This document shows, piece by piece, positions 3,337-26,819 of a DNA stretch of 64,000 nucleotides. Position 1 is the stretch's first letter; each line of letters begins with the position of its first letter. Both the position numbers and the translations under genes were made by a program. This stretch comes from Acetothermia bacterium UBA7521 (GTDB lineage: Bacteria; Bipolaricaulota; Bipolaricaulia; Bipolaricaulales; Bipolaricaulaceae): positions 141-64,140 of the forward strand of contig DLNB01000045.1 of the NCBI GenBank assembly GCA_002479455.1, given 5' to 3'. The notes under the pieces were generated by a model. The model made no database searches. It had not been told where the DNA came from and saw only the letters and a list, made by a program, of their open reading frames with translations.

Positions 3337-4611
3337 TCATTGCAGCCCCATCCTTCTGAGGAACTGGTTGCCCTGAACCGTCGCTGCCTGCAGCGCGCTC
3401 TCAAGGGTCTGTCTCCCCAAGATGACCAGCTCTATCTGCGGGATGAACGACTGCCATTCCCAGGCCAGAATGCCGAACATCTGTGGCTTCACGTCTTCGG
3501 CGTACGGTAGCCACTGGTACGCCACATCCCATTGGAACTCCGCGCTGCGAAACTCCGGACGCTCCAGGGCTGAGGAACGTGTCGGGAACAGCCAATCCGC
3601 TTTGGCAAGTCGTACCTGGTTTTCCGTGTTGGTGAAGAACCTCAAGAACTGGGCCGCCTCGTCCTTATGCTTTGATCCCGCGTAGATGCCCACCGCTTGA
3701 GGATTCGCCTCGGTCACATTGCGCACCGGCCCCTTCACCCAAAGCATTCCCCAATCCAGCTGCTTGCGCCCCACCATCTCCAGCCACTGCCGTACCCAAC
3801 ACCCGAAGCTGAACATCGCGTACCGGCCATCACGGAACCCGGCAAGCAAGCTCATGAAGTCGTAGCTCAAGATCTCGCGCGACATCACCTGGTCGACAAT
3901 GACGAGATCGATGTAGAAACGGATTGCTTCCTTGGCTGCATCGTCGATGTCCACAAACCACCGTCCGTCATCGCCCTCGCGGAGCACCCGCCCGCCGTTC
4001 TGCGCAACAAGACACCACCACAGCCGTTGTTCCAATGGCGCCATGAGACCCCAGGTCGTCACATTGCCGCGCGCGTCCCGTCGGGTAAGGGTCTGCGCAT
4101 ACTCCCGTAGCTGTTGCCATGTGAGCATCCCGTCTTCGGGGACTTCCAGCCCCGCTTCGCGGAACATGGCGCGGTTGTAGAAGATCACCTGCGTCTCCTG
4201 GAGGAAGGGGGTCCCGTAGATCAAGCCTTGGGGATCGGCTACCTCTTCCCAGCTGCGTTCTGTGATGTCATCCCACGTTGCCGCGTCGATGTACGCGTTC
4301 AGCGGCTCCGCATACCCCAGCAGCCCGTACTCGTAGCACATGACAGCGTCCTGGTGGAACAGATCAGGCGCTTGCCCTGCCTGGAAGCTGGTCAACAGAT
4401 AGTCGTTGATGTTCTCCCACGGTACCCACACCAGCTCGATGTGGATTCCTGGGTTCGCGGCATTCCACTCCGCAACGACGTCCTCGATCTCGTCCACCAT
4501 CTCCGGTTGCCATGCCGGCGTCACGAACTTCAGCGAGACCCGGGCTGCCGCAGTTCCCGCCAGCAGCAAGACACAGAACAACGCAGCCAGCCACGTACAC
4601 CTACCTCTCAT
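3337..4611 (-). CDS. ABC transporter extracellular solute-binding protein (family 1, sugar-type)
   Basis: The ORF frame is open to 4638, but GGAGGG lies 4 nt upstream of ATG 4611 (MRGRCTWLAALFCVLLLAGTAAA, a signal peptide). Trp/Tyr-rich periplasmic-binding-protein-like sequence that sits next to two permeases. Confidence 0.85.
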   Translation of the reverse strand: MRGRCTWLAALFCVLLLAGTAAARVSLKFVTPAWQPEMVDEIEDVVAEWNAANPGIHIELVWVPWENINDYLLTSFQAGQAPDLFHQDAVMCYEYGLLGYAEPLNAYIDAATWDDITERSWEEVADPQGLIYGTPFLQETQVIFYNRAMFREAGLEVPEDGMLTWQQLREYAQTLTRRDARGNVTTWGLMAPLEQRLWWCLVAQNGGRVLREGDDGRWFVDIDDAAKEAIRFYIDLVIVDQVMSREILSYDFMSLLAGFRDGRYAMFSFGCWVRQWLEMVGRKQLDWGMLWVKGPVRNVTEANPQAVGIYAGSKHKDEAAQFLRFFTNTENQVRLAKADWLFPTRSSALERPEFRSAEFQWDVAYQWLPYAEDVKPQMFGILAWEWQSFIPQIELVILGRQTLESALQAATVQGNQFLRRMGLQ

Positions 4612-19201: not shown

Positions 19202-20905
19202 ATGCCCAGCGACGTGACCGAGCCGGTGGACTTCATCCGCGAGATCATCCGCGACGACCTCCAGACGGGGAGGTTCGACCGGGTGCACACCCGGTTCCCC
19301 CCCGAGCCGAACGCCTACCTCCACATCGGCCACGCCCAGGCGATCCTCCTCAGCTACGGGATCGCCCAGGAGTTCGGGGGCAAGTTCAACCTCCGCTTCG
19401 ATGACACGAACCCGGAGAAGGAAAGCCTCGAGTATGTGGAGGCGATCAAGCACGACGCGCGCTGGCTGGGGGCGGACTGGGAGGATCGCGAGTTCTACGC
19501 CTCGGACTACTTCGAGCAGCTCTACCGGTGGGCCGAGGAGCTCATCCGCAAGGGTGTGGCCTACGTATGCGACCTGTCCCCGGAGGAGCTGAGCCAGACC
19601 CGCGGCCAGCCGATCCGCGACGGAGACCGCGTTATCACCCCACCAGGGGTGGAGAGTCCGTACCGAAACCGGTCTGTGGAGAAAAACCTCGACCTGTTCC
19701 GTCGGATGCGGGCCGGCGAGTTCCCCACCGGGGCCAAGACCCTGCGCGCCAAGATCGACATGGCCCACCCCAACCTCAACATGCGCGACCCGGTCATGTA
19801 CCGGATCCTCCACGCCTGCCACCACCGCACCGGTGATGCGTGGTGCATCTACCCGAGCTACGACTGGGCGCACGGGCAGTCGGACTCGATCGAGGGGATC
19901 ACCCACTCCATCTGCACCCTGGAGTTCGAGAACCACCGCCCGCTGTACGACTGGTTCCTCGACCAGCTCGGCGTGCACCATCCCCGGCAGATCGAGTTCG
20001 CGCGGCTCAACCTGACCTACACCATGACGAGCAAGCGGCGCCTGCTCCGCCTTGTCCAGGAGGGGCACGCCCGAGGACTCGACGACCCCCGGGTGCCGAC
20101 GATCGCTGGGATCCGCCGCCGCGGGTACACGCCGGAAGCGATCGCCGACTTCGTCCGCCGGATCGGCGTTTCCAAGTCCGAGAGCGTCCGCGAAATCGAG
20201 CTTCTCGAACACTGCCTGCGGGATGACCTGAACAGGCGCGCCCCGCGGCGGATGGCGGTTCTGGAGCCCCTGAAGCTCGTGATCACGAACTACCCGGAGG
20301 GAAAGGTCGACCAGTTCGACGCGGTGAACAACCCCGAGGACCCCGCGTACGGAACGCGGAGGGTCCCGTTTTCCCGGGAGATTTGGATCGAGCGGGAGGA
20401 CTTCATGGAGAGCCCCGTGTCCGGGTTCTTTCGCCTCGCCCCGGGGCGGGAGGTGCGCCTTCGCTACGCGTACCTCGTGAAGTGCGTGGACGTCGTGAAG
20501 GATGGGTCGGGGAGGGTGGTCGAGGTCCGCTGCACCTACGACCCGGTGACGCGGGGGGGCGATGCCCCCGACGGGCGGAAGGTGAAGGCGACCCTGCACT
20601 GGGTGTCCGCCCGTCATGCCGTGGACGGCGAGGTCCGGCTCTACGACCGGCTGTTCACCGTCTCCGATCCCCTCGACGTGCCGGAGGGAGAGGACTGGAT
20701 CGCCAACGTGAACCCGAGCTCCCTCGTCGTGCTCACGGGCTGCAAGCTCGAACCGAGCCTGGCCGAGGTCGAGCCGGGGGAGCGGTTCCAGTTCGAGCGC
20801 AAAGGGTACTTCTGCGTGGACCCCGACAGCCGGCCCGGGGTGCCCGTGTTCAACCGCACCACCACCCTCCGCGACACCTGGGCCAAGGTTCAAGGACGGG
20901 CGTAG
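19202..20905 (+). CDS. glnS: glutamine--tRNA ligase
   Basis: Class I HIGH motif (LHIGHA) within [43 protein letters not shown], which is typical of GlnRS. MTSKR is the KMSKS-like motif. Confidence 0.9.
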
Positions 20906-20939
20906 CACAGCGCCCCGCCCAACGGGGGATCAACAGGAC

Positions 20940-20968
20940 TTGACCATCACCCCAAGTGTTGCTACTAT
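20940..20968 (+). promoter_or_regulatory. candidate sigma-70 promoter of the regulator/ABC/peptide/radical-SAM operon
   Basis: TTGACC-17 nt-TACTAT, located 32 nt upstream of ATG 21000. Confidence 0.5.
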
Positions 20969-20979
20969 CCTACGTATAT

Positions 20980-20991
20980 CCGTAACTACGG
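20980..20991. promoter_or_regulatory. perfect palindrome CCGTAACTACGG (operator candidate) abutting the RBS
   Basis: CCGTA-AC-TACGG lies between the -10 box and GGAGGA (20990-20995). The half-site resembles the CCGTA/TACGG motifs of the dispersed repeat. Confidence 0.35.
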
Positions 20992-20999
20992 AGGACAAC

Positions 21000-21593
21000 A
21001 TGGCGTTGAAGTGGGACCTGGGGCACCTGGAGGCCGAACTCCGCCAGCTGGCCGATGCCCTTGCTGGCCTCCAGCGAGGGACCTTTGCACCTGATGAGCA
21101 GGCCACGGCCGCTCTGGTGGCGGCCACCCCGCCCTCGGGAATCGGCGGGGTGGTGGCCGAAGCCTTGCGGTCGTTGCAGGTGAGACTTGGGGAGAGGGAG
21201 GGCGTTCAGGTCCTCATCGTCGGAATCCGCCGCGGGCCGGAAGGTCGGGCCACCACCTGGTGCGAGCATTTCTCCGACGAGGCTGTCCCCAAGGTCTTAC
21301 GGGACCCAGGACTCCTCCGTACCCTCGAGCTCGTCGCCCACGGGGAGAGGCTGCGCCTCCTGTGGGCACTGGCCTCGGGGGCCACGGGGTCGGCGGAGGC
21401 CATGGACCGGAGCGGTCTCTCCCAAGGCCAGTTCTACCACCACCTCAGGGCCCTCGAGGCGGCGGGCATGGTGCGCAAGGTCACCCGCGACCTGTACGAA
21501 CCCACGATCCACGGGACCTCCGCCCTCTTCACCATCCTCGCTGCCTTGGCCTACATCGGGCACGGAGAGCCAGCGGAGGGGGAGGAGGAATGA
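21000..21593 (+). CDS. ArsR-like winged-helix transcriptional regulator with an uncharacterised N-terminal domain
   Basis: The start is taken at ATG 21000 (GGAGGA 5 nt upstream). The C-terminal segment LLRTLELVAHGERLRLLWALASG..SAEAMDRSGLSQGQFYHHLRALEAAGMVRK is an ArsR/SmtB-type wHTH. Confidence 0.7.
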   Translation: MALKWDLGHLEAELRQLADALAGLQRGTFAPDEQATAALVAATPPSGIGGVVAEALRSLQVRLGEREGVQVLIVGIRRGPEGRATTWCEHFSDEAVPKVLRDPGLLRTLELVAHGERLRLLWALASGATGSAEAMDRSGLSQGQFYHHLRALEAAGMVRKVTRDLYEPTIHGTSALFTILAALAYIGHGEPAEGEEE

Positions 21594-23320
21594 AGGGCTC
21601 GCTGGCGCGATTCTTCGCGCGGTTCATCCTCCCCCGGTGGGGGCAGGGCCTGACCCTCCTCGGCCTCATGGTCGCCTCCACCGCCGTCACGTTTCCCATC
21701 CCGCTTGTGGTGAGACTGATCATCGACCGGGTCATCCCCCAGGGCCGGGTCGACCTCCTAGCGGGGTGGGGGGCAGGGCTGGTGTTCCTCGTGGCCCTCC
21801 AGGCCGGGCTGGCCTACGCCACCCAGTACCGGACGGTGGTCATGCAGGAACGGCTGCTCTTGGACGTCCAGGTGGCGCTCTTGGACCATGTACTGCAGTT
21901 GCCCCACGCGTTCTTCCAGGAGCGGCAGGTGGGGTACCTCATGGCCCGGATCCGCAGTGACCCCGCGGTGGCCAAGGACTTCCTCTTCGGAGGCCTGAAC
22001 CTGGCCAGCGACGCCCTGTTCGTTGCCGTGGGCGCGGGGCTCCTCCTCTACCTCGATTGGCGGATGGCGCTCCTGGCGCTGGCAATCCTGCCCGCGTTGG
22101 CGCTTGCTTCCAAACGGCTGAACACGCGGATGGGGGAGTTCTGTCGGGATATCCAAGAAGGAGACGCGCGGGTATCCCAGGAACTGGGAGAGGGACTGAA
22201 CGCTGCCCTCACCGCCCGCCTATTCGGCCTGCGCTCGTGGATTGCCGACCGGGTATCGGGGGCGTTCACGTTCCTTCAGGAGGCCAACGTGCGCACGAAC
22301 ACTTTCGCAGCTGCGGCCGGAGGGGTGCTCACGTTCATCACCGGTGTCGGGCCGATGCTCCTCGTCGCCATCGGTGGGTATGGTGTGATCCGGGGCCAGC
22401 TCACCCTGGGTACAGTGATCGCCTTCATGACCCTCCTCAGTTATCTCTATAGGCCTACACAGAGCATGATTACCACCCGACTGAACCTTGAGCGGGCCAA
22501 GGTCGCCGCGGAGCGGGTGCTGGAGCTTCTCGACAAGGAGCCCGAGGACAACAGAGGTATCTCCCTGCCCGCGCCGACAGGACGTATCGAGGTTAGGGAC
22601 CTCTCCTTCGCCTACCCCAACGGGAAGGCGGCCCTGCGGCATGTCGCCCTCCGTGTCGAGCCAGCAGAATGGGTAGCCCTGGTGGGGCACACCGGCTCCG
22701 GGAAGTCCACCTTGCTTTCCCTCCTCCTGCGGCTGTTTCCCATTCCGGAAGGGACGATCTGGGTCGACGGCCAGGACGTCGCACAGCTTTCCTTGTCTTC
22801 CCTCCGCCGCGAGGTCCTTCTGGTCAGCCAGGATGTATTCCTGTTCTCTGGGACGGTGCTAGAGAACGTCCGTCTCGCCCGCGCGAGGGTCACCGACGAG
22901 GAGGCGATCGCGGTGGCCCAGGCGCTGGGAGCGGACGGGTTCATCCGCGGGCTGCCCGATGGGTACAGGACGCTGGTGGGGGAGCGGGGAGCGAAGCTCT
23001 CCGGCGGGCAGCGCCAGCTGATCGCCCTGGCCCGCGCCGTACTCCGGCGGCCGAAGGTCCTGCTCCTCGACGAGGGCACTTCCGCCTTGGACTCCGAGTC
23101 CGAAGCGAGAGTACTCCAGGCCATCCGAACCCTCTTGCCGACGACCACAGTGACCCTGGCGGCGCACCGATTGTCCACGGTGTGGGCCGCAGACCGGATC
23201 GTGGTCCTCAAGGATGGGCGCGTAGTGCAGGAAGGCCGACACGATGAGCTCTTTGCTGCGCCGGGCGAGTACCGGGAGGTGTTCGCCGAGCAGCTGGTGG
23301 GGGCGAAGGAGGAACAGTGA
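21590..23320 (+). CDS. ABC exporter, fused 6-TM permease plus ATPase (MsbA/bacteriocin-exporter type, no peptidase domain)
   Basis: The start is taken at ATG 21590 (ATGA overlap with the regulator stop). Walker A GHTGSGKST, signature LSGGQRQ, Walker B LLLDEGTSALD. The N-terminal half is hydrophobic. Confidence 0.85.
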   Translation: MKGSLARFFARFILPRWGQGLTLLGLMVASTAVTFPIPLVVRLIIDRVIPQGRVDLLAGWGAGLVFLVALQAGLAYATQYRTVVMQERLLLDVQVALLDHVLQLPHAFFQERQVGYLMARIRSDPAVAKDFLFGGLNLASDALFVAVGAGLLLYLDWRMALLALAILPALALASKRLNTRMGEFCRDIQEGDARVSQELGEGLNAALTARLFGLRSWIADRVSGAFTFLQEANVRTNTFAAAAGGVLTFITGVGPMLLVAIGGYGVIRGQLTLGTVIAFMTLLSYLYRPTQSMITTRLNLERAKVAAERVLELLDKEPEDNRGISLPAPTGRIEVRDLSFAYPNGKAALRHVALRVEPAEWVALVGHTGSGKSTLLSLLLRLFPIPEGTIWVDGQDVAQLSLSSLRREVLLVSQDVFLFSGTVLENVRLARARVTDEEAIAVAQALGADGFIRGLPDGYRTLVGERGAKLSGGQRQLIALARAVLRRPKVLLLDEGTSALDSESEARVLQAIRTLLPTTTVTLAAHRLSTVWAADRIVVLKDGRVVQEGRHDELFAAPGEYREVFAEQLVGAKEEQ

Positions 23321-23520
23321 GCTTCAAGATCGTGCTGGAAGTCGGCGGGGCTGACGTCTTCCGCCTCTGCCCATGCAGTTGTGAGCCCGGGGCAGGGAGG
23401 GGAGCAGGCGAAGGAAGGTCCGCCAGAAGATACCAGAAATCCGGGATGTGGGGCAATACCCGGCGCCCCTGTTCTTTGGGAGAGAAGACTCGCTCGAAGA
23501 AGCCTACCGAAAGGAGGTGA
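23317..23520 (+). CDS. possible second (paralogous or decayed) Cys-rich precursor-like ORF
   Basis: GTG overlaps the ABC stop (GTGA). MSFKIVLEVGGADVFRLCPCSCEPGAGRGAGEG... parallels the downstream peptide (FRIV..., CKCGCGC, AGGAGGGEG). The long Arg-rich tail after GEG looks non-functional. Confidence 0.3.
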   Translation: MSFKIVLEVGGADVFRLCPCSCEPGAGRGAGEGRSARRYQKSGMWGNTRRPCSLGEKTRSKKPTERR

Positions 23521-23525
23521 AGACC

Positions 23526-23654
23526 ATGGAGAAATTCAGGATTGTGCATGCAGCAAGCCCGATTCCTGGGCCACAGCCCATGGGCTGCAAGTGCGGCTGC
23601 GGGTGCGCTGGCGGCGCAGGGGGAGGAGAGGGCTCGGGAGACCTCCCGTTCTAG
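23526..23654 (+). CDS. Cys-rich RiPP precursor peptide candidate (42 aa; 68 aa if GTG 23448 is used)
   Basis: AAAGGAGGTG lies 6 nt upstream of the ATG. The peptide is MEKFRIVHAASPIPGPQPMGCKCGCGCAGGAGGGEGSGDLPF and sits immediately upstream of an RRE-rSAM-SPASM gene. Confidence 0.7.
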   Translation: MEKFRIVHAASPIPGPQPMGCKCGCGCAGGAGGGEGSGDLPF

Positions 23655-23750
23655 CCTAGGCGGATCTCCCTACAAGGACGAGTAACAGCAGATGGGGGCG
23701 CCGGGTGTTTCTCAAAGGAGGGAGACCTGAACTACAAGCTGCGCTCGACC

Positions 23751-25085
23751 GTGATCCATCAGGTGCGGCGAGGCTGGCATTTGTTCTGGGATCAGGAAAC
23801 CGTCGCGTGGACCCTCACGGACGACACGGGAGCATCTGCGCTCGAGTCCCTGCGACGTCCCCAGACCGTGCACCAAGTTGCTGTCAAGCTCGCAATGCAG
23901 ACCGGCTACAGCGTCTCTGACGTTCGCCCAGAGGTCGCCCGCCTCATTGATTCGGCGGTGAGGTGCGGGGTGGTCGAGGCGGATCGTGAACCCCGTCGAG
24001 CCCCTGAACCCACCGCGACCGACTGTGCTCCCCACCCTGCGTTTCTCTATCTCCACCTCACCTCAAGGTGCAATCTCCGGTGTTCTTACTGCTATGCGTC
24101 CCCTGGGCCCAACAAGGAGCGCGAAGGACGTGACATTCCCTTTGAGGTGGCCCGCGAGGTCCTTCATCAAGCCCAGGGCCTCGGTGTGGAGAACGTGGTC
24201 ATCACGGGCGGGGAACCGCTCCTTCACCCCCGGGCCGTGGAGCTTATTGAGGAGGCCAAGCGGTTGGGGTACCGGGTGAACCTTCTGACCAATGGCCTAC
24301 GGATCGAGCGTCCGGTCGCGTGGCGGTCGGCAATAGCCTGTGAGCAAGTCACCATCAGTCTGGATTCGGCGGACCCGACGCTCCACGACCTCCACCGTGG
24401 GCACGGCAGCCATAGGCGCGCATCCAGGGCGATCGCCGTCCTCCGCAAGGTCGGGTTCTGCCACGTGGTGGCCGCAGGGGTGCTTACGCGTCACAACCAA
24501 CACGAACGCCACGAGGACTTCGAGACCTACGCAAGGAGCCTGGGTGCGGAAAGGGTATCCCGGGCGCCGTACATCCTACAAGGGGATGCCCGTGATGCAT
24601 GGCTGCGTCCCCACTTTGCCTCCTTCTTGGCCCGTCTGCGGCAGGAACTCGACGTCGCGATCGAACGGGCCCGGCCTCGGGAGGAAAGGCCTGGCTTGGT
24701 CTGGCGGGACCGGTGTGGTGCGGCGTTCGGGGTGGTGGCCATCGGCGCCGACGGAGTGGTCTACCCGTGTCAAGGCCTGATGCGCCCGGAGTTCGCCGCC
24801 GGCAGCCTCCGAGAGGAGCCGCTGGAGAGGATCTACACGCAGGCACCGGTCCTCACCGAGTTCCGGGCGATCACGGTCGCGGACATCCCCGGATGCAGCC
24901 GTTGTGCGTACCGTTTCCTCTGCGGCGGAGGGTGTCGGGCGCTGGCCTATAACGTCACCCGCGACATCACCGCTCCGATCCCGGGGGAGTACTGCGCCCT
25001 CGCCCAACTCCTCGCCCAGTGGCGGCTGTGGGGGACAGCACTCGGCCAGATGCCCCTCTCGGCTCCTGCTGAGGTGCCGCTCTAG
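23751..25085 (+). CDS. radical SAM/SPASM peptide maturase with an N-terminal PqqD-like (RRE) domain
   Basis: CNLRCSYC (CX3CX2C) and GGEP. The SPASM motif is C...GADGVVYPC...CSRCAYRFLCGGGC (CX2CX5CX3C). The first ~90 aa (W.L....G..ALESL....TVHQVAVKLA...GYSVSDVRPEVARLIDSAVRCGVV) look like a PqqD/RRE domain. The start is uncertain: GTG 23751, or CTG 23727 at ideal spacing from GGAGGGAG. Confidence 0.85.
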   Translation: MIHQVRRGWHLFWDQETVAWTLTDDTGASALESLRRPQTVHQVAVKLAMQTGYSVSDVRPEVARLIDSAVRCGVVEADREPRRAPEPTATDCAPHPAFLYLHLTSRCNLRCSYCYASPGPNKEREGRDIPFEVAREVLHQAQGLGVENVVITGGEPLLHPRAVELIEEAKRLGYRVNLLTNGLRIERPVAWRSAIACEQVTISLDSADPTLHDLHRGHGSHRRASRAIAVLRKVGFCHVVAAGVLTRHNQHERHEDFETYARSLGAERVSRAPYILQGDARDAWLRPHFASFLARLRQELDVAIERARPREERPGLVWRDRCGAAFGVVAIGADGVVYPCQGLMRPEFAAGSLREEPLERIYTQAPVLTEFRAITVADIPGCSRCAYRFLCGGGCRALAYNVTRDITAPIPGEYCALAQLLAQWRLWGTALGQMPLSAPAEVPL

Positions 25086-25103
25086 CCAGCCCCTCGCAGC
25101 TCC

Positions 25104-25119
25104 GCCCGTTGTCACGGGC
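25104..25119 (+). terminator. GC hairpin after the maturase gene (weak terminator candidate, no T-tract)
   Basis: GCCCGT-TGTC-ACGGGC, 19 nt after the stop codon. Confidence 0.3.
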
Positions 25120-25160
25120 CCGCTCGGACGGGGACAGTGGCACGCTATGCTTCCCCCCGC

Positions 25161-25265
25161 ATGGAACTGCGCGAGGATTCGGTGATCGAGCCGGTCCGGG
25201 AAGGCGCGAGCTACCAGACCTACGAGTGGCCCTGTTCAAGGCGAACGGAAGTCACAGCAGCTTGA
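25161..25265 (+). pseudogene. orphan 5' fragment homologous to the start of the GNAT gene at 25953
   Basis: 25144-25230 aligns to 25936-26022 at roughly 85% identity, covering the RBS region plus MELREDSVIEPVREGASY versus MELRDDLVIEPVRDGAGY. The frame then diverges and ends inside the hicA 3' end. Confidence 0.65.
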
Positions 25266-25497
25266 GCCGTTTCAGATCCGCCTCGGTCCAGCTGAGGTCG
25301 TCCAGGATTGCCTGCAGGGTTCGGAGAGGGAACGTATCGCCAGGACGCCGGTACACGATCACCGCGCGTCGTCCATCTCGCGGGTTATGGTAGACCCGAT
25401 GGCTCCCTCGTTGCCGGTCGAGCAAGAACCCATCCCGCTCCAACGCAGCACAGAGTTCCCGGACGGTGATCATTCGCAGTTCGGGAGGGACCCTCAT
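25252..25497 (-). CDS. hicA: HicA-family mRNA interferase toxin
   Basis: ITVRELCAALERDGFLLDRQRGSHRVYHNP...RAVIVYRRPGDTFPLRTLQAILDDL matches the HicA (YcfA) pattern. ATGA overlap with the hicB stop. Confidence 0.85.
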   Translation of the reverse strand: MRVPPELRMITVRELCAALERDGFLLDRQRGSHRVYHNPRDGRRAVIVYRRPGDTFPLRTLQAILDDLSWTEADLKRLKLL

Positions 25498-25739
25498 ACC
25501 GTGACGGTGAGGGCCTCCTCTTGGGTCGAGGGAAGGTGCTCAGGGCCCTCCACGGGAATCGGGTCGCCGTGCGCGAGCATGGACTCGATATAAGCGGCAG
25601 CGGCTTCTCGGATGTTGACGAGCGCCTCATCCCGGGTGGCTCCCCAGGAATGACAGCCACGAAGCGCCGGGCAGTAGGCGTGGAACCCGCCTTCATCCGG
25701 TTCCAAAACGACACGAACGCGAAACGTCACCTGTGCCAT
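25494..25739 (-). CDS. hicB: HicB-family antitoxin (UPF0150 domain only)
   Basis: The start is taken at internal ATG 25739. MAQVTFRVRVVLEPDEGGFHAYCPALRGCHSWGATRDEALVNIREAAAAYIE is the classic HicB N-terminal fold. Confidence 0.8.
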   Translation of the reverse strand: MAQVTFRVRVVLEPDEGGFHAYCPALRGCHSWGATRDEALVNIREAAAAYIESMLAHGDPIPVEGPEHLPSTQEEALTVTV

Positions 25740-25809
25740 CCCCTCCAGACGAAGTATAGCAGGCCGCTGCTCGGAGGGAGGCAAGAGAAGACTTGGCTCG
25801 GCAGCGCGA

Positions 25810-25916
25810 GGCACAGAGATCCGTGATCCCGTTGTCCGTAATCCGCGGTCCGTATGAGCCCCGTCCGACCGAGCAGGAGAATTGCGGACCACGGGCTACG
25901 GACGACGGGCAACGAG
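25810..25916. repeat. ~107-nt palindromic CCGT-rich dispersed repeat, copy B (inverted relative to copy A)
   Basis: The reverse complement CTCGTTGCCCGTCGTCCGTAGCCCGTGGTCCGCAAT...ACGGACCGCGGATTACGGACAACGGGATCACGGATCTCTGTGCC aligns with 19041-19146. Confidence 0.8.
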
Positions 25917-25952
25917 CGAAGCCGGGGAAGGGGCGGCTATACTTCCCCCCGC

Positions 25953-26819
25953 ATGGAACTGCGCGATGATCTGGTGATCGAGCCGGTCCGCGACGGCGCG
26001 GGGTACCGCGCCTGCGAACGGCTCCAGCAACAGGTGTGGGGGTTCGCGGACCTCGCGGTGGTCCCGGACCACCTCATCCACATGGTGGTCAACGCCGGTG
26101 GCCTCCTCCTCGGCGCATTCGACGGGATCGGACCGGGGCGGGAGATGATCGGGTTCACCCTGTCCGTGGTCGGCCTTCTCGACGGCGGGGTGCTCCGCCA
26201 CTACTCCTTGATGGCCGCGGTGCGGCCGGACTGGCAGGATCGGGGGGTGGGGTACAAGCTCAAGCTCGCCCAGCGGGATCGCGTGTTGGCCCAAGGTGTC
26301 GGGATCATCACCTGGACGTTCGACCCGTTGGAGTCGCGCAACGCCTACTTCAATCTGAACAAGCTGGGCGGGGTCGTCGGCCAGTACCTGCCGAACTACT
26401 TCGGCGAGCTCCGCGACGCGCGCAACCGGGGGATCGACACGGACCGGTTCCTCTGTCAGTGGCACCTCGATGCTCCACGCGTGAGGAGCTACCTCGGCGG
26501 CGGCAGGCCGCCCGCCCTCGCCCTCGGCGACGTGGAGACGATCAACCGCACCCAGCGCACGGCAACGGGGCTCCGCGCGCCGGCGGGGTTCCGACCGGAT
26601 CTGCGTGCTCACAACCTCTTGTTCGAGATCCCGTCGGACCTCCAGACGATGCGCAAGGACGACCTCGACCTCGCCCGGACGTGGCGGCTCGAGGCGCGGC
26701 GGGCGCTGGGGACGTACCTCGACGAGGGCTACGTCGTGACATCCCTCTTCCGCCAGGGCGACCGGAGCTTCCTCGTCCTGGAGAAGTCCCCCCTTCCCAA
26801 GGTTCTGGAGCGGCCGTGA
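25953..26819 (+). CDS. GNAT-like acyltransferase of the type paired with N-succinylamino-acid racemases
   Basis: The start is taken at ATG 25953. MELRDDLVIEPV...RPDWQDRGVGYKLKLAQR..A...G...ITWTFDPLESRNAYFNL.KLG. Its stop overlaps the start of the enolase-superfamily gene (GTGATG). Confidence 0.65.
   Translation: MELRDDLVIEPVRDGAGYRACERLQQQVWGFADLAVVPDHLIHMVVNAGGLLLGAFDGIGPGREMIGFTLSVVGLLDGGVLRHYSLMAAVRPDWQDRGVGYKLKLAQRDRVLAQGVGIITWTFDPLESRNAYFNLNKLGGVVGQYLPNYFGELRDARNRGIDTDRFLCQWHLDAPRVRSYLGGGRPPALALGDVETINRTQRTATGLRAPAGFRPDLRAHNLLFEIPSDLQTMRKDDLDLARTWRLEARRALGTYLDEGYVVTSLFRQGDRSFLVLEKSPLPKVLERP

Follow-up and report, generated by a model that had tools for sequence, protein, structure and literature searches.

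A five-gene radical SAM cassette of Bipolaricaulota that probably makes two hairpin sactipeptides with Cys-to-Gly bridges

What does a radical S-adenosylmethionine (SAM) enzyme with a SPASM domain make when it is encoded behind a 42-amino acid (aa) Cys-rich peptide of a type that is not readily recognized? The question is raised by a locus in Acetothermia bacterium UBA7521 (phylum Bipolaricaulota), found in a 64,000-nt stretch of contig DLNB01000045.1 that is called the window below; positions are those of the window unless a homologous locus is named. A preliminary description of this DNA had listed a promoter match, a regulator, an exporter, a 42-aa open reading frame (ORF) and a 444-aa protein, and had read them as a compact cassette for a ribosomally made peptide with post-translational modification (RiPP) of the thioether type (sactipeptide or ranthipeptide). 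All of these features are present where it placed them and the RiPP reading is supported. It had counted four or five genes. There are five co-directional and tightly packed genes at 21000-25085 (regulator, ATP-binding cassette [ABC] exporter, pepA, pepB and maturase); a second precursor gene, pepA, had been missed. We consider it likely that the locus is a self-contained operon making two hairpin sactipeptides with Cys-to-Gly sulfur bridges.

Two precursor peptides and their conserved Cys/Gly ladder

The nearest described peptides come from the work of Precord et al. (2023), who reported an MftC-related enzyme group with neighboring peptides that share the core motif CxCxCx4GxGxG (PMC10288494). 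In the Streptomyces sparsogenes StsA/StsB/StsC system the modified peptide shows a mass change of -6 Da and has no free thiols, and desulfurization with NiCl2/NaBD4 placed deuterium on Cys2, Cys4, Cys6, Gly11, Gly13 and Gly15. StsA variants, with support from mass spectrometry, fit the nested sactionines Cys2-Gly15, Cys4-Gly13 and Cys6-Gly11, and formation of the outermost bridge is poor when the inner ones are missing (PMC10288494).

The pepA product starts with MSFKIVLEVGGADVFRLCPCSCEPGAGRGAGEG and continues into a basic tail. It consists of a 17-aa leader (MSFKIVLEVGGADVFRL) and the core CPCSC-EPGA-GRGAG(EG) (23368-23415). PepB (MEKFRIVHAASPIPGPQPMGCKCGCGCAGGAGGGEGSGDLPF) has a 20-aa leader, the core CKCGCGC-AGGA-GGGEGSG (23586-23639) and the tail DLPF. 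The two are paralogous precursors with leaders of 17 to 20 aa in an alternating hydrophobic pattern (xFxIxLxVG), and they account for the only two occurrences of C.C.C....G.G.G in all six frames of the 64-kb window. The core had been called unfamiliar, and in this point the preliminary description has to be corrected: it obeys the published StsA motif (PMC10288494). PepA fits exactly in StsA numbering (L1-C2-P3-C4-S5-C6-E7-P8-G9-A10-G11-R12-G13-A14-G15) and pepB is the same motif with one extra Cys/Gly pair, giving four Cys and four Gly.

Homologs of pepB were not found in a set of 5.8 billion proteins, and pepA gave only two near-identical matches. PepB-type precursors are missing from protein databases because small ORFs are not called or are called in the wrong frame. 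In window-identical DNA (L102, 4959-5096, corresponding to window 23548-23685) the public gene call is a wrong-frame 45-aa ORF (MQQARFLGH...) overlapping pepB, while pepA is called as a gene. Homologs were therefore sought in the DNA beside maturase homologs. The loci came from DNA around these homologs, from metagenome contigs scanned with a family-specific DNA pattern, and from a genome-contig scan with the family alignment. The last used generic patterns and yielded one true member (L001) and 79 distant radical SAM loci, which served as the background set for motif counts.

Homologous small ORFs accompany homologous maturases, a co-occurrence that the preliminary description had proposed to look for, in about 13 independent versions of the locus, in which maturase identity goes as low as 42%. 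Across these loci both small ORFs keep their frame, each with a Shine-Dalgarno (SD)-like sequence and a leader of 17 to 22 aa; the 20-aa pepB leader and its SD are kept across loci. PepA is present in every homologous locus that has sequence upstream of the maturase. Its type is xFxIxLxVG..., C(x)CPCxC, (E/Q/D)(A/P/Q)G(A/G/E), GxGxG... and a Lys/Arg-rich tail that reaches the pepB SD. The pepB type is (K/R)FxI..., PxPxP(L/M)x, CxCxCxC, (A/S)G(G/S)(A/E/G), GxGxGxG and then two to five residues. Anchored on the last Cys, the rule C(xC)n-x4-G(xG)m with m ≥ n holds for 12 of 12 pepA variants and 11 of 13 pepB variants; all ten pepB variants with four Cys have exactly GxGxGxG, and the StsA-type register CxCxCx4GxGxG is held by 23 of the 25 homologous peptides. 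Among the 80 loci of the genome-contig scan, the pattern C.C.C....G.G.G was found only in the family member L001 and in L011. In L011, from a Mobilitalea metagenome-assembled genome, the peptide MKYEAPMMEVVELEAAMEDCACACGCMNGNGSGSC lies at about 9040 (+), approximately 3 kb from a radical SAM/SPASM gene whose product shares 31% identity with the window enzyme; this peptide may be a further variant of the motif, in Firmicutes.

The Cys and the alternate Gly are invariant although their codons vary (TGC/TGT for Cys and all four Gly codons), and we conclude that selection acts on the protein. At the positions in between, residues change freely (A, G, E, S, Q, R, N, T, H). The close relatives L091 (CLCPCTC...GRG) and L096 (ILCPCTC...GRD) differ in both the outermost Cys, replaced by Ile, and the outermost Gly, replaced by Asp; a paired loss of this kind is exactly what nested pairing predicts. 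The five-gene cassette is real and beyond chance. It could be supposed that the two small ORFs are chance ORFs in a GC-rich spacer and that the enzyme acts on something else, as pepB is absent from protein databases and public gene callers prefer the wrong-frame ORF. Conservation in frame with SD and leader down to 42% maturase identity and the synonymous variation at invariant Cys/Gly codons both contradict this. Judged by the sequence comparison, the chance-ORF explanation appears effectively refuted and we regard it as extremely improbable.

The acidic tail, which the preliminary description had treated as a feature of the core, did not hold up. Glu and Asp at core positions are variable or absent in homologs, and some pepB tails have few or none (GAGSGAGIA, GAGAGEGAAI, GAGAGSGSSIT), whereas, Cys apart, only Gly is invariant in the cores, and it lacks a side chain. 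Of the thioether options it had raised, Cys-to-Asp/Glu (ranthionine) linkage is therefore disfavored and a Cys-to-Gly alpha-carbon sactionine is favored.

PepB is decayed in two loci. In L083 (7751-7951) it ends in ...GGCSCGCAGGKI* and the Gly ladder is lost; in L094 (frame 2, upstream of 2918) it reads ...PMRFGRACGCSGGEGAGAGCG and Cys residues are lost. PepA is intact everywhere, these two loci included, and is thus the more constant substrate; it appears to be the essential one. Its basic tail, which doubles as the SD region of pepB, may be under weak constraint. We also note that in L090 (about 3733-3960) the pepA frame past the core differs from that of the window (a frameshift or a sequencing indel) and runs across pepB.

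The maturase and its placement near StsB

The maturase matches Pfam Radical_SAM (92.7 bits) and SPASM (30.8 bits, cut-off 21.5). The complete SPASM domain announced by the preliminary description is confirmed by its seven Cys and the match over cut-off, and the pattern CX12GX4C...CX2CX5CX3C...C is conserved in the family alignment. The N-terminus, which had been noted for its resemblance to a RiPP recognition element (RRE), gives only a faint match to Pfam PqqD. An AlphaFold model built from a 24-sequence alignment (pLDDT 86, pTM 0.83) folds residues 2-71 as a beta3-alpha3 RRE. In a Foldseek search against the PDB the best match was CteB, over the full length (TM score 0.72), followed by SkfB, anSME, SuiB and PqqE. 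A sequence profile gave the same order, matched the N-terminal regions of CteB and SkfB, and in addition found the lasso-peptide RRE TbiB1. A fused RRE is thus backed by both the model and the profile matches. C322 and C340 are the only Cys of the SPASM domain that precede the CX2CX5CX3C block. By analogy with CteB, such an arrangement would fit an auxiliary cluster with an open site for the substrate thiolate.

About 27 cluster-level homologs of the maturase were found at 42 to 94% identity, after which the score falls sharply from 334 to 217 bits. The cluster at 90% identity carries only the NCBI name "radical SAM protein [Candidatus Bipolaricaulota bacterium]", and the more distant homologs carry Bipolaricaulota or Bipolaricaulaceae names. 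Literature searches that combined Bipolaricaulota or Acetothermia with RiPP or sactipeptide found nothing.

Comparison with StsA and StsB rests on NCBIfam models and on the published motif and positions. The top NCBIfam model of the window enzyme is NF045574 (StsB family radical SAM/SPASM domain sactipeptide maturase) with 136.1 bits. This model matches 24 of 24 aligned family members with E ≤ 1e-30, the best E-value of any family. The sole NCBIfam match of pepA and pepB is NF045558 (StsA family sactipeptide RiPP; E 0.028 to 1.8). The six "catalytic-site proximity" positions of PMC10288494 were mapped through a profile alignment to CteB and are occupied here by Y115, T152, L179, S203, Q341 and G342; the StsB residues are Y113, T147, I174, S199, K338 and L339 (PMC10288494). 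By this mapping through CteB, positions 1 to 4 appear to agree (Y, T, I/L, S), four of six. Y115, T152, L179, S203 and Q341 are invariant in the family, and position 342 is mostly Gly with a few Ser or Ala. SkfB has Q-L at positions 5 and 6.

Three relatives beyond the family boundary, 31 to 36% identical to the window enzyme, bridge the distance to StsB. P0030, P0028 and P0029 score 251, 174 and 154 bits with the StsB model, each clear of the next family. P0029 (L103, 346-2550) adjoins a small ORF ending in ...CSCGC-GSTN-GAGKGAGA, and P0030 (L104, 3267-5334) adjoins one ending in ...CACVCAC-GLLA-GQGSGSGSG-DKK. Besides a discrete PqqD protein, comparable to StsC, the P0030 locus encodes an S24 peptidase and an ABC-2 transporter. 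As P0029 and P0030 lie beside peptides of the same motif, the Bipolaricaulota family is placed as a distant branch of a broader StsB-like group, and the four-Cys peptide beside P0030 shows that the four-Cys form is not unique to it. Going by these sequences, the C(xC)n-x4-G(xG)n logic spans a wider, mostly unannotated group.

Several observations weigh against the assignment to Cys-to-Gly sactipeptides of the StsA type. The 136.1 bits of the window enzyme do not reach the NF045574 cut-off of 625 bits, and the margin over the next models is small (ScmE and MftC, 120 bits). The NF045558 cut-off of 42 bits is reached by neither pepA (14.3 bits) nor pepB (9.6 bits). The proximity positions 5 and 6 differ (Q341-G342 versus K338-L339 in StsB). 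No protease or immunity gene was found within the cassette, which bears on the mature form and function, and the decay of pepB in L083 and L094 means that at least one product is dispensable there. In Pfam and NCBIfam no family is above cut-off for the peptides and no specific family for the enzyme. The match to a named RiPP family that the preliminary description had allowed for was thus found at the level of the motif and the nearest family (StsA), not at the level of the model cut-offs.

The small margin gives some room to a different SPASM chemistry (MftC-like, ScmE-like or undescribed), with a convergent likeness to the StsA motif, and full-length similarity is known to mislead in this enzyme group (PMC10288494). 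The MftC model stays below its cut-off of 265 bits, however, and the peptides end in DLPF or a basic tail and not in the C-terminal Gly-Val-Tyr needed for MftC. In addition, the peptide motif, the peptide hidden Markov model (HMM) and the enzyme HMM independently indicate StsA/StsB, and the relatives bridging to StsB have the same motif. A different SPASM chemistry is unlikely in our judgment.

A second alternative is a ranthipeptide or another non-alpha thioether, in which Cys would be joined to the beta- or gamma-carbons of Asp, Glu or other tail side chains. Such a product is suggested by the best structural match, CteB, which is a ranthisynthase, by weak matches to the PapB and SCIFF-maturase models, and by E35 and D39 in window pepB. 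These models score under StsB (PapB 73.7 bits, cut-off 340; SCIFF maturase 67.8 bits, cut-off 425), and there are no conserved acidic acceptors, so that we hold a ranthipeptide to be quite unlikely. Further candidates were rejected. The NCBIfam "StsB" was considered as the streptosactin enzyme; that enzyme is GggB, a type-2 non-hairpin sactisynthase, and the StsA and StsB of NCBIfam are proteins of S. sparsogenes. The ACGX-repeat, SCIFF, mycofactocin, PQQ, GeoRSP and SynChlorMet families were all below cut-offs or have incompatible peptides.

Start codon, regulator, exporter and flanking genes

Coordinates of the cassette features are collected in Table 1.

Table 1. Features of the cassette in the window
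Feature	Position	Strand	Remarks
Sigma-70-like promoter match TTGACC-17-TACTAT	20940..20968	+	Upstream of regulator; consensus match
ArsR-like winged helix-turn-helix (HTH) regulator, 197 aa	21000..21593	+	Pfam HTH_20 35.6 bits (cut-off 27), HTH_5 25.4 bits (cut-off 22)
ABC half-transporter, 576 aa, MsbA/bacteriocin-exporter type	21590..23320	+	Pfam ABC_membrane and ABC_tran only
pepA, 67 aa	23317..23520	+	GTG start overlaps ABC stop codon (GTGA); conserved across loci
pepB, 42 aa	23526..23654	+	SD AAAGGAGGTG at 23510-23519
SD AAGGAGGGAG and CTG 23727	23715..23729	+	Conserved SD; homologous codon is TTG/ATG elsewhere
Sactisynthase-like maturase, 452 aa from CTG (444 aa from GTG 23751)	23727..25085	+	RRE, radical SAM and SPASM
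Fused RRE	about 23751-23966	+	Predicted fold and sequence profile
Radical SAM CxxxCxxC motif (CNLRCSYC)	24069-24092	+	C107, C111, C114 invariant in 24 sequences
7-Cys SPASM domain	24714-24995	+	C322, C340, C382, C385, C391, C395, C415

The maturase start, described as odd in the preliminary description, is odd indeed. The SD (23715-23724) closely precedes CTG 23727 and lies at 27 nt from GTG 23751, and no canonical in-frame start was found in the window between the upstream stop codon and CTG 23727. The codon behind the SD AAGGAGGG is CTG in the window and in L087, L090, L086, L092 and L094, TTG in L098 and L083, and ATG in L081, L085, L095, L096 and L001. At the protein level the residues after it, NY(K/R)L, are conserved. 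In public gene calls the proteins of the 90% maturase cluster come in five different lengths (434, 444, 452, 464 and 474 aa). The best reading of these sequences is probable initiation at the non-canonical CTG 23727, the alternative GTG 23751 having no SD, and the locus would be an instance of CTG as start codon that has comparative support.

The promoter was scored by the sigma-70 consensus, and Bipolaricaulota promoters are uncharacterized. One sigma-70-like match was found in 20500-25600 (5.1 kb) versus 0.4 expected in shuffles, so that TTGACC-17-TACTAT is weak evidence for a putative promoter.

The N-terminal part of the regulator (about 100 aa) is a domain of unknown function. Regulator homologs (196-201 aa) are the first cassette gene in L081, L083, L085 and L086. 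The single Cys of the window protein is Tyr in four of four homologs, no Cys is conserved across them, and the score with the ArsR/SmtB metalloregulator model NF033788 (29 bits) is below the cut-off of 55. A metal-binding product had been considered plausible in the preliminary description, and one may picture an exported Cys-rich metallothionein- or metallophore-like peptide under an ArsR/SmtB sensor, with the radical SAM enzyme carrying out another modification. CxCxCxC does resemble metallothionein motifs, the cassette has an ArsR-type regulator, and metal-related genes are found nearby in three loci (HypA and CobW in L083, NikR in L085, and in L086 ZnuA and a DtxR-like gene). These neighbors differ per locus and lie outside the conserved cassette, the regulator adds no support for the reasons given, and the co-conserved Gly ladder of fixed spacing is left unexplained by metal binding and is predicted by sactionine pairing. 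We therefore consider a metal-binding product very unlikely.

The exporter ATG overlaps the regulator stop codon (ATGA), and the exporter is kept in all four loci L081, L083, L085 and L086. As had been observed, the exporter has no C39 peptidase domain by Pfam; it reached no NCBIfam cut-off.

The order HTH-ABC-pepA-pepB-radical SAM is constant across homologous loci and the flanking genes are different in each, as if the cassette moved as one unit. In the window the maturase is closely followed by a toxin-antitoxin pair, hicA (25252-25497, -) and hicB (from 25494, -), with a direct repeat of 87 nt on either side (25144-25230 and 25936-26022, 84% identical; region 25137-26022). The repeat is a duplication of the 5' end of the gene that comes next (...PRMELR(E/D)D.VIEPVR(E/D)GA.Y...), and the arrangement looks like a toxin-antitoxin module insertion with target duplication. 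Other neighbors were recorded in the homologous loci: IS110 and rve transposase genes lie immediately before the cassette in L083 (1027-5052), and a second ABC transporter follows the maturase in L086 (5825-7492).

Predicted products and comparison with known systems

In the mechanism that we propose for the two hairpin sactipeptides, by analogy with StsA/StsB/StsC and the CteB structure, the leader would dock as a beta-strand on the N-terminal RRE. The 5'-deoxyadenosyl radical would take the alpha-carbon hydrogen from the acceptor Gly, and the Cys thiolate, probably held at auxiliary cluster I, would form the S-C-alpha thioether. Bridge formation is expected to repeat from the inside of the hairpin outwards. 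The pepB product would carry four nested bridges (C27-G32, C25-G34, C23-G36 and C21-G38; -8 Da) and the pepA product three (C22-G27, C20-G29 and C18-G31; -6 Da). The ABC half-transporter would export the products, and leader removal, if any, would depend on a protease encoded elsewhere. Their biological role could be that of a narrow-spectrum antimicrobial or a signal. A more far-reaching proposal is a two-component pair, with a universal cationic-tailed peptide A and a dispensable peptide B, both served by one fused-RRE enzyme, with four nested Cys-Gly bridges on residues that alternate strictly. In an uncultured Bipolaricaulota of the deep biosphere its role may then not be antibiosis; it may lie in metal or redox chemistry that the ArsR-type regulator governs, or the maturase chemistry may depart from that of StsB. 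We give little credence to this proposal.

If the Cys-to-Gly assignment is correct, StsA/BlaA-type hairpin sactipeptides are extended to Bipolaricaulota, where the public annotation is "radical SAM protein", and the motif generalizes to C(xC)n-x4-G(xG)n with n = 2-4. The two peptides would offer a single fused-RRE enzyme a compact set of two substrates, and the mass losses predicted for them can be looked for. The wrong-frame call of pepB illustrates how such precursors escape protein databases.

CteB, the SCIFF ranthisynthase (PDB 5WGG/5WHY), has the same succession of fused RRE, radical SAM and SPASM domains and aligns with the window enzyme over the full length. It differs in showing only 21% identity and in making a Cys-to-Thr gamma-carbon bridge on the SCIFF peptide, and in its proximity residues (F, F, T, S, H, Q) it departs from the window enzyme at positions 1-3, 5 and 6.

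Thurincin H is a hairpin with four nested sactionines, and thuricin CD is a two-peptide sactibiotic. The donors of both are spaced CxxC, and residues such as Ser, Thr and Asn, rather than Gly, act as acceptors. In thuricin CD the two peptides have two maturases, whereas here one enzyme would serve both.

In the BlaA/BlaB system, BlaA is an StsA-related hairpin sactipeptide with Cys-Gly sactionines in the CxC...GxG register, and its bridges Cys13-Gly22 and Cys15-Gly20 were established by NMR (He et al., 2022, as cited in PMC10288494). As summarized in the citing article, it differs in having only two bridges and a Ser-Lys-Asn loop.

The StsA/StsB/StsC system is the closest of all in core register (CxCxCx4GxGxG) and in having a radical SAM/SPASM maturase, and the same nested Cys-to-Gly alpha-carbon hairpin bridges are predicted here. 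Its RRE is the discrete protein StsC, while the RRE is fused in Bipolaricaulota and the cassette has no separate PqqD gene. Each cassette here has two paralogous precursors, one with a long basic tail, and in place of the three Cys/Gly pairs of StsA most family members have four, window pepB included. Here the maturase is accompanied by an ArsR-like regulator and an MsbA-like exporter, and the host belongs to another phylum. The cassette is a new and distant clade within a sactipeptide type that was characterized in 2023, and not a new chemistry class. New elements are the phylum, the fusion of the RRE to the enzyme, the precursors that come in pairs, the cores with four Cys/Gly pairs and how far the sequences stand from the curated StsA/StsB models.

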